Shown: piece after piece, positions 681 through 60,567 of the stretch
How the letters are laid out: the number at the start of each line of letters is the position of its first letter
Position numbering within the stretch: position 1 is the stretch's first letter
Origin: Eledone cirrhosa
Taxonomy: Eukaryota
Length of the DNA stretch: 64,000 nt
Direction: 5' to 3'
Assembly (NCBI GenBank): GCA_964016885.1
Contig: OZ024752.1
Location: forward strand, 48,112,001-48,176,000
The notes under the pieces: model-generated
The model's database searches: none
Told to the model about the DNA's origin: nothing
Seen by the model: only the letters and a program-made list of their open reading frames with translations
Translations under genes and position numbers: made by a program

Positions 681-974
681 ATATATAAGAACAAAAGATC
701 GTTAAAAGAGTTCCATGTATTTTATTATGCGCATTTCAAAAACAAATATCATCATGCAATAATATTTGTGTTTTCATCAGATAAGACAGGAAGACCAATA
801 TTATTGCATGATGATATTTGTTTTTGAAATGCGCATAATAAAATACATGGAACTCTTTTAACCATCTTTTGTTCTTATATATTATTTATACTCCAGTCCT
901 ACAAACTGTAGAGTGCTTCTTATCCGATATCTGCATTGCTTTATTGTACTACAATAAAACTCACCTCTTACATT
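681..974 (+). mobile_element. Penelope-like non-autonomous fold-back element in (TA)n
   Basis: Inverted arms ~681-767 and ~797-882, HHR on the minus arm, 3' bulged hairpin at 890-914, (TA)n on both sides. Confidence 0.7.
718..787 (-). ncRNA. Minimal type I hammerhead ribozyme
   Basis: Minus strand reads ttat-CTGATGA-aaacacaaatat..atatttgttttt-GAA-ATGCGCAT-A-ataa. Stem III is a perfect palindrome; AUA cleavage triplet. Confidence 0.75.
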
Positions 975-1004
975 ATATATATATATATATATATATATAT
1001 ATAT

Positions 1005-1255
1005 AGATCGTTCTTGTGATATAGGTCGGTAGAGTTTATACTATTGAACTAATTCCTCTTTATAACGCTCTGATGAATCCAGCTATTATGCAGGGAGGAA
1101 ACACTCTCAGCAAATAAAGATTAATTGATGATGTAAGCGCTCTTTGTTTTTGTTCCATATAACGGCTCTGCTTTCAAGCATTGAGCTAATTAAATACTGT
1201 CATATATTCGACAGGGCACCTGTATCTTATACACACGTTCTGTTGTCTAAACATA
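1005..1255 (+). mobile_element. Penelope-like short element with degenerate HHR
   Basis: gct-CTGATGA(1070-1076)-atcc..ggag-GAAA-cactc-TC-agc, then AATAAA and the GCTC-TGC-loop-GCA-TT-GAGC hairpin at 1165-1186; flanked by (TA)n. Confidence 0.55.
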
Positions 1256-1710
1256 ATATATATATATATATATATATATATATATATATATATATATATA
1301 TATATATATATATATATATATATATATATGGGATAACAAGTTATCATTATAGGTAATCCAGTTAGAGGTTGTGAGTGCTCTGCGTCGTGGATAGTTTTAA
1401 GATGCTTCCATAGTTATGCGACGACTTCGCGGTAATTTTTATGCAGGTTATACTTGGAGTAATAATAGTTAAATAATAGTTAATCTTCATTCTTTAACTA
1501 TATATATATATATTTTAGTAAGTAAGTTAATTTTTAATTTTTAAAATTTTCTTATTTTACGTCTTTCATATAATTGTTCTGCATCCCCCTGCATTGAACC
1601 ACCTAGGTACTATGACATAACTTGTGTATTTGCTAGCATTAGTGTACATCTGTACGCATATGTTGGTAAATATACTAATTCTCTCTCTATATATATATTT
1701 ATATGTATAT

Positions 1711-1845
1711 AACAAAGAGAGTGTGGTAAGATACCGTAATACACAAGAGTACTCAATACTTAGAGTAGTAGAGTGGGTAATAGGAAAAGAATCAGGACCC
1801 CCGACAGCCGGAGTTCAGCCACCGGGGTCCTGGTTGTTTCTATCG
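1711..1845 (-). mobile_element. H3b family fragment (tail plus short fold-back)
   Basis: gagtactcaatacttagagtagtagagtgggtaataggaaaag matches the reverse complement of 54290-54383. Confidence 0.65.
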
Positions 1846-55637: not shown

Positions 55638-57555
55638 ATGTGCCTCCATGTATATATATATATACAATTATTATTATTATAAATAATTTCTCAACTGTAT
55701 TGAGAAATTATGATATAACAGAGTACTCTTTTGCCTTTACCTATTTTATGGAACCTCTTGACACTATATATATATGCATGTGTGTGTATATATATATATA
55801 TACATATACATATGTGTGTGTGTGTATATATGCACATGTGTGTGTGTGTCTGTTTGTGTATATGTGTATATATTATAGATTTGAGGTGAATAAAAGCAAA
55901 AGGGAATATGTAAAGTATTATCATTATTTACTTCTTTGTTCTATATTTTCTTGCCATAATCGGATTTTAAAACATTTTTTCCCTTCTTTTCAGTATTATC
56001 ACATGCCACAATGGACAAGAAGAAGAAAAAAACCCCCACAAAACAACAATAATAATAATAATAATAATAATGAAACAGAAGTAAATAGGACAACCCCCTC
56101 CCCCATCCTCTCAACCAAAAAATAAAATAACAACAACAAACAAATAAACAAAGAACTATTAATAACCATGAAAGGTGATGGACATGATCTGAATAAAATA
56201 TCAATTAGCAGCTAGATTAAACTTCTATAAAGTCGGTAGAGCCTTTAGTGTGTCCATATGTCATGTAAGTACTGAAAATAGAGCAATGGATGGGTGTAGA
56301 TAGAGGTGGATGACAAAAAACGGAAGCCTTGCACTGCTAAAAGTGACATCTTCTCTGAGGAGATGTCATAGGTCTAATGTTCTTATCTTGTCAGGGAGGG
56401 AGGTTGGAAGGTTGGCTTTGCTTGCTGACAAAGCTGAAAAAAAAAAATTTTTTTTTTTTTAAAGGAGAAAAAGGGGACAAAAATAAGAAAGGAAGGCCCT
56501 ATTTAGAAAACTGTAGAAGTTGGTGAAGCATGTAGCAGGTTAGTTTTATGAAGCATAAAGGTTTAATAAGAAAAGCAAATCTACAACTGACAATTTTTAA
56601 GGGGTTGTTATTATTATTTTTATATTTTTTGTTAATATTTTCTTTACTTTTCTTTTTGATTTTTTGCGTAATCATCGTTAGTTTAACGCCAATTTTTTTT
56701 TTCTTGCAGGGTGGGAAGATTGTGTGTGAGAGTGTGAGGGGATATGTTTGTGTGAGTAGGTTTTAAGATTTTCTTTTCATTTATTTCTTAAGGATTGCAC
56801 GGACTGGATGGATCTATAGGGTTCCTATCATGTATAATTTCCTGCTATGATACCCAAAATAAAAAAAAAGATAACAAAATAACATTGATTCTTGTAAACA
56901 GAACCATCATTACTTGTACAGAATAAGTAAGGTCTTGGCTTCAGCCTCCTTAAGAAAAGCATCATCATCATCATCATCATCGTTTTTACATCTGTCTTTT
57001 CCATATTGCCACGGAATATTTTGAGGCAGTATTCTACAGCCAGATACCCTTCCTGAAACCAACCCCGAGTTATTCTAAGCTATGGCCCTTATTCCACTGG
57101 ACCAATATTTCATCAACCTCAAAATATTGAAAGCCAACATTCACCTCGGCAGGAATTTAATTCAGTGCAGAAAGCTGGAATAAATACCAAGATATGTAAT
57201 CTGGACTAATGACTCTGCTAATTTTCTGCCTACCTTTGGAATTTTTGATTATTTTCATTACAAATATGGTAACAAAAAGATTAACTTAGCCATGTGAAAA
57301 TGTACAAGTTAGTGGTTTACTCTCAGATATCTAATTACATCTGAATTTCTTCAACTAACCAAACAACGTGGCATTTCCTTTGTTAAGTGAAATCAAATTT
57401 GCGTTGTTGTTTTTTTTAATGTCTAAAACCTCATCCAACAAACCACTATAATACTTTAATAGATATGGCTGAGTGGTTAAGAAGTTCACTTTGTAATCAT
57501 GGATCCCATGTTCAATTCCACTGTGTATATATATATATATATATATATGTACATA

Positions 57556-57717
57556 TGGTGAAATTCAGTTGTAATGAAATTCACGGGGTATGAAAAAAAT
57601 TTTGTTGCAACGAAAAATACTTTATAACGAGATTGACCTATCACATCGAGCGTGTGGCCGGGGATTGAAAAAAATGTTGTTATACTGAAAAATTTAGTAA
57701 TAATGGAATTTTACCTG
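57556..57717. mobile_element. Tc1/pogo-like MITE, second copy
   Basis: Colinear similarity to 16099-16285. Confidence 0.65.
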
Positions 57718-60370
57718 TATGTATATATATATATATATATATATATTGGTGTGATAGTGATATTTTCAGGGTTATGAATTAAAATGCAGGGAAAAGCGGA
57801 CGTAAAATGATGATGATGATGATGATGATGAAGCAAATTTACAAATTTACAGTTATGATAGTGTTTCTACAAGACCTTTATAAATTTCTAGCATGTTAAA
57901 ACAAACTTTAAACAATGATGAACCTATGAAATAATTCCTTTAATATAAAACTGATACTTGGTAACTCTTTTATACTCCCATGTCTATCACACATTACATA
58001 ATATTAAAACAATATCTGAAGATATTTTGTGACCAAGATCTTTGGAAAGGAGCCAGGTTGGAAAGTGAAGAGTTCATTTTCCGAGTAATTTGCTTTGCGA
58101 ATAATAAGCCGTTAAATGTGGAGCGACTGTAAATAAATCTATTGTTTATGAAAGAAAATTCAAATTAAGGTTAGTAGATTGACCATTATTATCGTCATCA
58201 GAGGAAGACCACCTGCTGATGATGACAGCAAGTGCACTCTCTGTTAAATATATACACTTTAAAAAGCAGGTGGAGTCTGGTGCAGTCTATTTAATTTACT
58301 ACAATGTGACAAATTATCTGTGATTAATTGGTAAGTATATAGTAATTTTCATTAATTGCAGGAATGACATTAACATACAAATTTACAATAATGACGGCAA
58401 CAGTGTTTACAATAATAATTAGTGACAATAAATTTTGAAATTTGTTTGTTTGTTTATATCTGATTCATTTATTCATTTATACTGCAAAACAAGAAAAGAA
58501 GACAAATGTATATACATCCATACATACATATATATATATATAATTTATTTATGTTTACATACATATATACACATATAACAATATCATGAAAAGAATATAT
58601 AATATATATATATATATATATATATATATATATATATAGATATATATAAACATACCATATATCTTTAAATATATGAAATTCACACACACACACACATACA
58701 TATATATATATAATTTATTCATGTTCACATAAATATATTATATATATAACAATATTTATAATATCATAATGTTTGACACTTGAAAATGTATGTTAAGAAT
58801 AAAAGAAAGTAACTATGAAAATAAGAAAGATCTCCTTGACAACACATCTAAAAGTAATGCACATAAATCTATAGCTGGTATTTTACTAACAATGTTAAAA
58901 ATGTGAGGATGTGAAAGTCAGAATGCCAAGTTCAACCCCTGGAAATTATGTCAATGGTATCATAAGTAGTATTTTATAGCATAGTTATCTGATTTCTGTC
59001 ACAATAAAATATAGATAGTTGATCATATGATTCCAGTTATTATGATGCTATACTTGTTGTTTAGCCTTAAATCAATCCTGAACCAGAAGACCTGATATCA
59101 AAGTCATTCTAGTCATGACTATCTTGTCTTTTTAGGAGATATGTAGGACTACTACAATATATGCTGTGTGCATCTATCTGGTTTGAAATAGATACATCAT
59201 ATCCCTGTATGTTGTAAGAAGGAACTAAAAGAGTTGGCACTAGGATGGGCATCTAGCTGAAAAACCTTGTCTGAAAAAGACACCAGTAAAGCTAAGCCTT
59301 TGCTTTAGCACGGGAAATGACCTTAAATGCTTCTTGTAGCATAACATTATATTGTGTGTCCATGTCCTTTACTTATTTAAAATAGTAAGGTGTGATTTGA
59401 GGATTAAATGTTGCTGTTCAACTTGACATAACCTACCTTGGCACTATCTCTCCCACCCACACAAAACTGTGCCTGGTACTAAGTCAAAACTAGTCAATAG
59501 GGTGTTGGATTGACATATGATCATGATGATGCTTATTGTAACTTTTCTGGGAAAATTATATTTCTTTATTTAAAATTCATGTTAGCATGAGTGGGTGGTT
59601 TTGAATATTTCCCCTGCCACACCTCCTTTTCAACTGAATGACCTGGATTTAACATTTTATTATCTTGTAATGAAGTGGTTCTTATTATATACCAAGGATG
59701 GCTAAGATAAACAGAATATAATATGGAGAACAATACAATGGAAGTAACAAGGTTTGAACACATGAACTTAACCTCAGTATTCAAACACTATCTCTACAAT
59801 TAGAATTGGAGAAAGATAAAATTATGCATACAGATGTCAAAATAAGATGTATTTTAATTTTATCCAAATGAGACGTCACAGAAATATTCCAGAATTATAG
59901 AACAACAAAAGTGCTTTAGATCAAATCAGCATAATTTCAATGTTTTTTTTTTATATACTGATAATATAATTTCAAAATCTACTAAAATATAATTTTTGTA
60001 TCTAAACTTACAACAGTATTAGCATAAAGTTGAATCTTAAAATAAGTTTGTACATCCTTTACAAAGCCACTTGCAATAAGCAGCTGAATCATCATTTTCA
60101 TCATTTTTATATTCACTTCTTCCATACTGAAATAGGTTGGACAGATTTTGTAATCAGATTATCTATGGCTGGATGCCCTTCCTCTGACTAAATCCTGCCT
60201 TGTTTCAAGTATAGTATATATACTGCTGACATTTGTCACATTGCTACATTGTAGGACATATTGTTTATGGAGGGTAAAAAACAAATGACACCACTGGCTT
60301 TTATAAATTGTGTCAATAGCATTTGTAGCCACCAACCAACACATACACATTTATATATATATATATATAT

Positions 60371-60567
60371 ATAGGAACAAGTAGGACCCCGACGGCTGAG
60401 CTCAAGCCGTTTCGATGGCTAATTCTGGACTCAGAATTAGCCGTCGAAACGGCTTGAGCTCAGCCGTCGGGGGTTCTACTCATTCCTATTACCCACTCTA
60501 CTACCCTAAGTATTGAGTACTTTGGTGCGTTATGGTCCACCTGGTTCCTTACCACATTTCCTTCGTT
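60371..60567 (+). mobile_element. H3 fold-back element
   Basis: ~57-bp arms 60371-60427 / 60432-60489; tail hairpin 60495-60518; (TA)n flanks. Confidence 0.8.

Follow-up and report, generated by a model that had tools for sequence, protein, structure and literature searches.

What is a small bulged hairpin for, when it recurs beside one ribozyme-bearing element after another? The question is raised by a 64,000-nt stretch of the Eledone cirrhosa genome (contig OZ024752.1, positions 48,112,001 to 48,176,000, forward strand; hereafter the window). The window contains elements of 200–400 nt that sit within (TA)n runs, carry a type I hammerhead core and often have an inverted partner arm. Each of them derives from an end of a Hydra-clade Penelope-like retrotransposon. 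An earlier note on this DNA had listed nine hairpins within them, and all nine are present, with the described arms and U-initiated 2-nt bulges. The note regarded their carriers as unrelated families; instead, the hairpins at 10245 and 54089 belong to one family, and at least six families are tied to Hydra-clade open reading frames (ORFs). Our analysis reveals a clade-wide, apparently undescribed RNA motif, which is present in two copies (hairpin copies HP1 and HP2) and predicts both ends of Hydra-clade insertions (END1 and END2, located just 5' of HP1 and HP2, respectively). We consider it likely, with a probability of roughly 0.7, that each copy would bind the reverse transcriptase (RT)-endonuclease of the element and fix the cDNA start just upstream.

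The hairpin is strongly enriched. A strict scan for a 4-bp outer stem, a U-N bulge and at least three inner pairs finds 15 hairpins in the window, compared with a mean of 1.87 (maximum 7) in 100 local shuffles. Eight of the nine sites are recovered, the site at 24964 being missed for its looser inner stem, and seven are added (27691, 53000, 54670 and 58236, and on the minus strand 1774, 24301 and 54473), among which 58236 is probably a chance match. Twelve of the hairpins found by the scan lie 30–75 nt ahead of a (TA)n run, versus 0.09 (maximum 1) in shuffles. In the 3.0-Gb, microsatellite-rich genome, a looser pattern of the motif has 211,342 matches versus 67,898 with a reversed control, and a longer pattern has 5,302 versus 4. 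Chance, under which shuffled sequence would contain the motif equally often, is thus contradicted both in the window and genome-wide.

The motif reads R-C-U-C-Y...R-U-H-G-A-G-Y, with an unpaired ACUNU-like run after it. For pair counts we used a structure-anchored table, from which 10 of 98 candidates scoring below 14 were dropped (n = 88); in an automatic alignment, the inner stem fell out of register. The pair adjacent to the bulge is C-G in 53 copies, U-A in 29, U-G in 2 and unpaired in 4, and its covariation reaches 0.77 bits, compared with 0.12 at most in shuffles. When mapped onto a 31-protein tree, in an analysis that drops 13 candidates scoring below 15, this pair changes five times, at least three of the changes being forced by well-supported branches. 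The next two inner pairs are formed in 59 and 54 of 85 copies (34 and 33 when shuffled). The outer pair (n = 78) is G-C in 68, A-U in 6 and U-A in 2, with nine two-sided changes versus 0.7 in shuffles. The compensatory changes that had been noticed in the stem therefore exceed those of shuffled sequence at both the outer and the inner pairs. The first base of the bulge is U in 84 of 88 copies and the second is free (U 61, C 15, A 12), while the following pairs are G-C in 83 and A-U in 87. The 2-nt bulge had been described as constant, which is true of the nine sites, whereas one Hydra family (L027, L038, L096 and L314) has a single-U, 1-nt bulge in HP1. The spacer that forms the loop ranges from 5 to more than 30 nt. 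In addition, leaders from other sources keep a TAT/ATA triplet ahead of the hairpin, at positions -8, -7 and -6 (28, 40 and 29 of 79), with a peak at -7 (40/79) versus 3–14 at positions outside this range. Together, these comparisons support the view that the motif is a covarying structure under selection.

A genome search for GIY-YIG domains returned Neptune-type elements and a second type, the end repeat of which corresponds to window positions 24892–25046. Neptune-type elements, characterized by a CxxxCxxC linker, were rejected as partners of the motif, which is absent from their ends and leaders; the best relaxed motif score in four such leaders is at most 12.8, versus 14–19 for true copies. 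In these elements (L081, L088, L093, L099 and L100), the hammerhead-like fold has an altered core and its stem III is palindromic; the AUG follows a leader of just ~25 nt. The second type is a young autonomous family, to which the hairpin at 24964 belongs; its 129 scored copies are 96–100% alike, and several have a 713-codon frame. Its 709-aa product is encoded by a single ORF, with the RT followed by a C-terminal GIY-YIG endonuclease, the GIY-YIG motif being assigned by eye. The fold model of this protein has a pLDDT of 90.7 and telomerase RT as its best PDB match; Pfam gave no score at E 0.01 for the C-terminal 307 aa searched alone.

The Hydra clade is defined by the motifs RWK, DKT, CxCx5C and CxxC/CxH around conserved E and N, together with the lack of CCHH, and its elements have a hammerhead in the pseudo-long terminal repeat (pLTR), insert into (TA)n and are generally shorter than 3 kb (PMC8557442). 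By motifs, and with the published Hydra sequences compared by eye, the protein of the young family appears to bear these marks. The N-terminal RWK motif is RWR in the 709-aa query and RW[KR] in 44 of 50 aligned proteins, the change from DKG to DKT is represented by DK[TS] in the query and all 50, and the linker is CxCx5C in the query and CxCx4-6C in 48 of 50. The CxxC and CxH motifs are seen in the query, and CCHH was not seen in its endonuclease by eye, without alignment to CCHH-bearing clades. Of 50 relatives, 48 have an RxR stretch after the RT. The hammerhead in the pLTR and insertion into (TA)n are both found here. The 60495 family represents a second autonomous family, which shares 248 of 446 residues with the first; its tandem unit of ~3.54 kb exceeds the length typical of the clade, which is a tendency and not a strict criterion.

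Full-length elements show how the motif is arranged: the 3' untranslated region (UTR) is followed by the hammerhead, an A/U stretch, HP1, 38 nt, a second A/U stretch, HP2, 23 nt and the AUG. In full-length copies of the young family, HP2 has the same motif and is closed by a tetraloop. Relatives were collected as 93 loci, ~40% identical at the protein level, in marine metagenomes and in genome bins contaminated with host DNA. Among 29 non-redundant leaders from these other sources, taken from the hammerhead to the start codon, 23 contain two strict motifs, four contain one and two contain none, both of the latter having degenerate copies. In the controls, two motifs occur in 0.01 of 29 shuffled leaders and one motif in 5 of 315 ORF windows. 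HP2 is located 15–52 nt 5' of the AUG in leaders from other sources. Both copies are also visible by eye in published sea cucumber and coral consensus sequences: Hydra-1_Ajap has both and starts 2 nt before HP1, and Hydra-2_Ajap and Hydra-2_Amil finish with HP1 plus the tail.

The hairpins listed in the window are therefore HP1 copies inside a tail, the later end of which goes with HP2; if so, copies that were left uncut should contain HP2 immediately after END2. In five of seven window families examined (24964, 60495, 890, 1165 and 33289), HP2 is found past END2 and is followed by a Hydra ORF. The search pattern of the 60495 family has 321 matches versus 0 in the control and that of the 890 family has 277, while HP2 is present in 2 of 2 matches of the 1165 family and in 1 of 10 of the 33289 family, the latter an old degenerate copy. 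The 32747 family was outside these searches.

The ends of the insertions map to the hairpins with a precision of a few bases, counting bases shared with the TA target as part of the element. In the young family, 102 copies were anchored at the hammerhead; 22 continue into the ORF and 80 stop, 44 of them at -2 to -4 of HP1, 33 at -2/-3 of HP2 and three elsewhere. Short copies of other families that align up to the TA run all end at -13 to +1 of HP1 (45/45); 14 more remained unaligned to the TA run, and 179 were unassigned, mostly from the young family or other clades. For three more families, searches anchored upstream of the hairpin yielded 115 arms, with 69 at END1, 39 at END2 and seven elsewhere. 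Moreover, contigs of one public run, which may be the assembly's own sample, have two main loose-end sites, where they break into (TA)n 3–4 nt before HP1 and HP2. The distal end lies 2–5 nt before the second copy, which is itself absent from the insertion. In tailed arms HP1 is found 25–79 nt before END2, at a distance that varies by family, whereas the distance from an end to the next hairpin is nearly fixed across families. About half of the arms, those finishing at END1, carry no hairpin (44 of 77 mapped ends, and the 69 of 115 arms in the three families). The earlier note had placed the hairpin about 35–70 nt before each element's 3' end. That distance, 38–70 nt, corresponds to the spacing between two motif copies, not to a constant offset, and it is the ends that sit a few bases upstream of a hairpin. 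Its idea of a selected structure serving as an RT signal fares better: the structure covaries and is tied to Penelope-like ends, and an RT signal is the most likely function, although the geometry proposed for it is not supported.

The pairing of inverted arms provides a further constraint. It was analysed in 1.63 Mb of fetched host sequence with 107 of 133 probes, kept after filtering of microsatellite false END1 arms; the probes derive from tailed arms, and single-copy families are biased. Among 75 head-to-head insertions, 72 combine END1 with END2, one has END1 twice and two have END2 twice. Mixed pairs thus make up 72 of 75, versus 37.5 expected with independent arms (p = 2e-18); lenient calls give 101, 5 and 3, some of the lenient END1 calls being short interspersed nuclear element (SINE) flanks. 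Of the 33 partnered arms in the searches anchored upstream of the hairpin, 32 belong to mixed pairs. It is already known that the tail is frequently confined to one end (PMC8557442); new here is the connection of this one-sided tail with two hairpins. The mixed pairs suggest a single event in which an RNA uses both of its hairpins.

In the mechanism that we propose, the protein would bind the hairpin and nick (TA)n DNA. The nicked end would pair with the U/A stretch that immediately precedes the hairpin and prime from there, resulting in target-primed reverse transcription with an internal start. The cDNA would run away from the hairpin, so that the start-setting hairpin would be left uncopied. 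Two RT active sites, one per hairpin of one RNA, would prime from the two nicked target strands, yielding two outward-facing arms, exactly one of which has a tail. Such twin priming, with both hairpins of one RNA used in one event and one assigned to each target strand, is a possibility to which we give slightly less than even odds. Since the signal responsible for an end is missing from the resulting copy, END2 copies can arise only from a template with HP2 behind the 3' repeat, from which we deduce that this template is a tandem-array transcript or a circular RNA. Tandem arrays with a period of ~3.54 kb exist in the genome, and the hammerhead-made circular RNA proposed by Cervera and de la Pena would also serve. 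The conserved bases match those of HIV TAR and RxR follows the RT in nearly all aligned proteins, which leads us to the tentative suggestion that the bulge may fold like the TAR arginine sandwich, with U on an A-U pair, and may be read by the arginine-rich segment. Programmed twin priming in its full form, with a protein dimer on two TAR-like hairpins of one tandem or circular RNA, would alone yield both the inverted arms and the one-sided tail; it is speculative, and we believe it to be somewhat doubtful.

The ends could alternatively be cuts, if the GIY-YIG endonuclease recognised the hairpin in a single-stranded DNA (ssDNA) intermediate, either the cDNA or a displaced strand, and cut beside it. 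In the account of Craig et al., the tail results from resolution by the endonuclease (PMC8557442), the D. virilis endonuclease needed tail sequence, as reported by Frangieh et al. (PMC11167929), and hairpins with a conserved flank are the sites at which the GIY-YIG Ssn nucleases of bacteria cut ssDNA (PMC11893778). The U/A stretch ahead of each hairpin also resembles the target, and the strand evidence for RNA is weak. However, the hairpins are repeated in direct orientation and each end is a 3' end of the sense strand, which is what two cDNA starts would produce, while a staggered two-strand cut would presumably rather need inverted sites. In addition, the in vitro RT starts of a Poseidon element coincide with genomic tail ends (PMC11167929). 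Cutting at the hairpin is the main rival reading, and we regard it as improbable.

The geometry of the earlier note corresponds to a 3'-tail stem-loop of the long interspersed nuclear element (LINE) type, located upstream of the priming site and copied into every insertion. Stringent LINEs use such a stem-loop (PMC1636434, PMC4176376), and HP1 does precede END2 by 25–79 nt in tailed arms. This model is very unlikely to apply, as END1 arms have no upstream hairpin, HP2 would set no end, and the distance that varies between families is that from HP1 to END2, in contrast to the nearly fixed distance from an end to the next hairpin. Even less room is left for the hairpins as a translational operator or cap-independent entry site, with the ends nearby only through the A/U-rich leader. 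HP2 lies close to the AUG in leaders from other sources, and a hammerhead-cut RNA would lack a cap, but the placement of ends within 2–4 nt, the pairing of END1 with END2 and the fixed register of the U/A triplet are all left unexplained; translation may be a second role of the hairpins. A double-stranded DNA site such as a promoter element, or a chance pattern, would fit the nearly invariant sequence of the outer four pairs, and is hardly tenable given the spacer of 5 to more than 30 nt, the enrichment over shuffles and controls, and the covarying inner pairs, by which it is largely refuted.

Several observations speak against an RNA hairpin that binds the RT and sets its start. Three of the four outer pairs are almost invariable and therefore demonstrate sequence conservation and not pairing, and the bulge U is missing in 4 of 88 copies. 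Only 8 of 15 examples (locus L163 left out of this count) have the bulged form as their minimum-energy RNA fold, with weak z-scores, and the evidence for the RNA strand is thin, inner pairs being G-U in 14 cases versus A-C in 6 (p = 0.06). By eye, two of the consensus sequences published by Craig et al., those of a copepod and an octopus, look divergent. No HP2 was found for the 10245/54089 and 41708–41728 families, each searched with one pattern, and a first pattern also missed the HP2 of the 890 family that a later pattern found. Inverted partners are lacking for 58 of 91 arms within ~1.25 kb and for 63 of 133 END2 arms within 2.5 kb; either twin priming is thus optional, or the second arm frequently disappears. 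Binding of the hairpin and priming by the protein are themselves inferred, and the U/A stretch is also the target of the endonuclease, so priming and cutting are not separated. As for the arginine sandwich, one family, in the HP2 of L264, swaps the U-A pair that a TAR-type triple would need, and the basic RxR stretch could be a nuclear localisation signal.

Among characterized systems, the Anolis element PAc of the Poseidon clade offers a close comparison. Its RT starts internally in vitro at two sites matching the genomic tail and needs RNA 3' of these sites, and the protein, a predicted dimer, cuts and extends both target strands (PMC11167929). As proposed here, the Hydra elements would share with it two internal starts at the tail ends, the need for RNA on the 3' side and the cutting and extension of both target strands, besides an AT-rich target and a hammerhead upstream. 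The PAc starts lie 30–40 nt apart in an AC-rich stem-loop inside the ORF, for which that account defines no binding motif (PMC11167929), whereas the putative starts described here are located in the 5' leader, ~60–110 nt apart, each directly before a conserved bulged hairpin. Protein motifs, the hammerhead, the (TA)n target, the inverted 5'-truncated partner and the tail at one end are all in line with the published Hydra clade (PMC8557442). Craig et al. 2021 give no description of leader hairpins, the word "hairpin" being absent from their main text, although such hairpins are visible in their consensus sequences (PMC8557442).

Stringent LINE and SINE tails, such as those of eel UnaL2 and zebrafish LINEs, likewise contain a small hairpin with an internal loop or bulge, which the element's own protein recognises (PMC1636434, PMC4176376). 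That stem-loop is a single one, is copied and has the priming site on its 3' side, unlike the Hydra motif, which is found 3' of the putative start in two copies and whose presumed end-setting copy is left behind. The hairpin would thus work like the RT-recognition stem-loops of LINEs, but it is not one of them, because it is doubled and downstream of the start. A paired purine, a bulged U, a free second base and G-A-G with C-U-C are shared with the arginine sandwich of HIV TAR and 7SK, and the TAR contacts comprise A22, U23, G26, A27-U38 and G28 (PMC6189040). Unlike TAR, the Hydra hairpin is circularly permuted, with the loop on the other side of the bulge, and continues into the conserved unpaired ACUNU; the likeness is one of sequence, and we assume convergence, not kinship. 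Animal non-LTR retrozymes also have type I hammerheads in pLTR-derived short units and use tandem or circular RNA templates, and their descriptions in these two sources name no RT-recognition motif (PMC7229834; bioRxiv 10.64898/2026.07.22.740005). The window elements were rejected as retrozymes of this kind, being single or inverted end fragments, most of them tied to ORF-bearing families. SECIS elements, known from Naiad selenoprotein elements, were also rejected, since they have a different core (AUGA...GA) and occupy the 3' UTR of an ORF with an in-frame UGA, and the motif lies 5' of an open ORF. A literature search, subscription papers (for example Pyatkov 2004) and figures being outside its range, found no description of the motif or of twin leader hairpins.

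Within the window, hammerhead cores are predicted from pattern matches, and some arm boundaries, judged by eye, are approximate. Four HP1 copies lie on the plus strand in tails of head-to-head insertions. In the first (~686–973; HP1 890–914), the inverted arm ends at END1 and has a minus-strand type I hammerhead core at 734–780, while the forward arm ends at END2; HP2 and the Hydra ORF of this family are found in loci L498–L500. The second (~9972–10308; HP1 10245–10263) contains cores in the forward arm (10180–10202, plus strand) and the inverted arm (10028–10006). The third (~53960–54153; HP1 54089–54108) has its inverted-arm core at 54017–53995, and the fourth (~60373–60567; HP1 60495–60518) belongs to the family that runs into HP2 and the second autonomous Hydra ORF. 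The young family is represented by a core variant at 24892–24915 (plus strand), a canonical core in the inverted arm (24762–24739), HP1 at 24964–25008 (plus strand; 709-aa ORF in L161–L170) and END2 near 25046. On the plus strand, the element at ~1006–1255 contains a core at 1070–1101 and HP1 at 1165–1186, and its family runs on into HP2 and a Hydra ORF in L492/L493. The element at ~33100–33373 has its core at 33182–33223 and HP1 at 33289–33309, also on the plus strand, with one old copy (L482) running on into a degenerate HP2 and a Hydra ORF. Another plus-strand core, at 32637–32656, precedes HP1 at 32747–32771 and END2 near 32833. Upstream (5') of this core and hairpin, positions 31879–32244 of the plus strand encode a decayed Hydra-clade C-terminal GIY-YIG endonuclease with stops and frameshifts (tblastn E 1e-12), of the same type as that of the young family. 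The HP1 at 41708–41728 lies on the minus strand, with a core at 41828–41782.

Further HP1 copies were added by the strict scan. The 60495 family has minus-strand copies at 1751–1774, 54450–54473 and 24278–24301, the last in an END2 arm whose END1 partner finishes near 24420. The 24964 family has plus-strand copies at 53000–53045 and 54670–54715, and another plus-strand HP1 lies ahead of a microsatellite (27691–27710). Different families are nested or abut inside the same (TA)n runs at 24100–25560, 32400–33450 and 54150–54760. The window also contains a 48-copy array of a 104-nt unit (16904–21882, 97% alike) and 2.7 tandem copies of a 222–224-nt unit (26457–27053), which is common in the fetched loci and is probably a SINE. 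Among the best 150 of 356 Rfam matches to the window, all were below the cut-off, with miRNA-family hits on microsatellites and no hammerhead; the ORF listing of the window held only simple-repeat frames.

Outside the window, the hammerhead core is degenerate in both of the youngest autonomous families: most copies of the first (L161–L170) have a single base change, and no core was matched in 20 loci of the second (L462–L481). Such cores next to retained hairpins hint that hammerhead cleavage is dispensable. Arrays of at least four 3.54-kb Hydra units with open frames, which are candidate masters, are located at C1:91476610-91487265 and C1:437200345-437210966. Retrozyme-like miniatures with tandem units of ~257 nt occur at L464/L465 (C1:27009636, C1:27009893) and L467, and keep the 3' half of the hammerhead, HP1, HP2 and the first ORF codons; matches of the 890 family on C2 have a similar spacing of 204 nt. 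Hydra-clade elements were also found in contigs of bacterial genome bins (L258–L273), likely animal host DNA, and no relative was found in viral contigs.

Penelope-like RTs are the closest relatives of telomerase; the way in which they select their RNA and start site has so far been open, and the one-sided tail and inverted arms have been without a mechanism; the hairpins would explain the one-sided tail. As the position of the motif predicts both ends to within a few bases, the mechanism is directly testable, and annotation gains a rule for the true leader and ends of Hydra elements. The findings also imply that master elements must be tandem or circular, and they supply a short RNA tag that might guide writing by an RT-endonuclease into (TA)n. 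If programmed twin priming is true, the hairpin would be a portable signal of ~25 nt that gives a telomerase-related RT its start.

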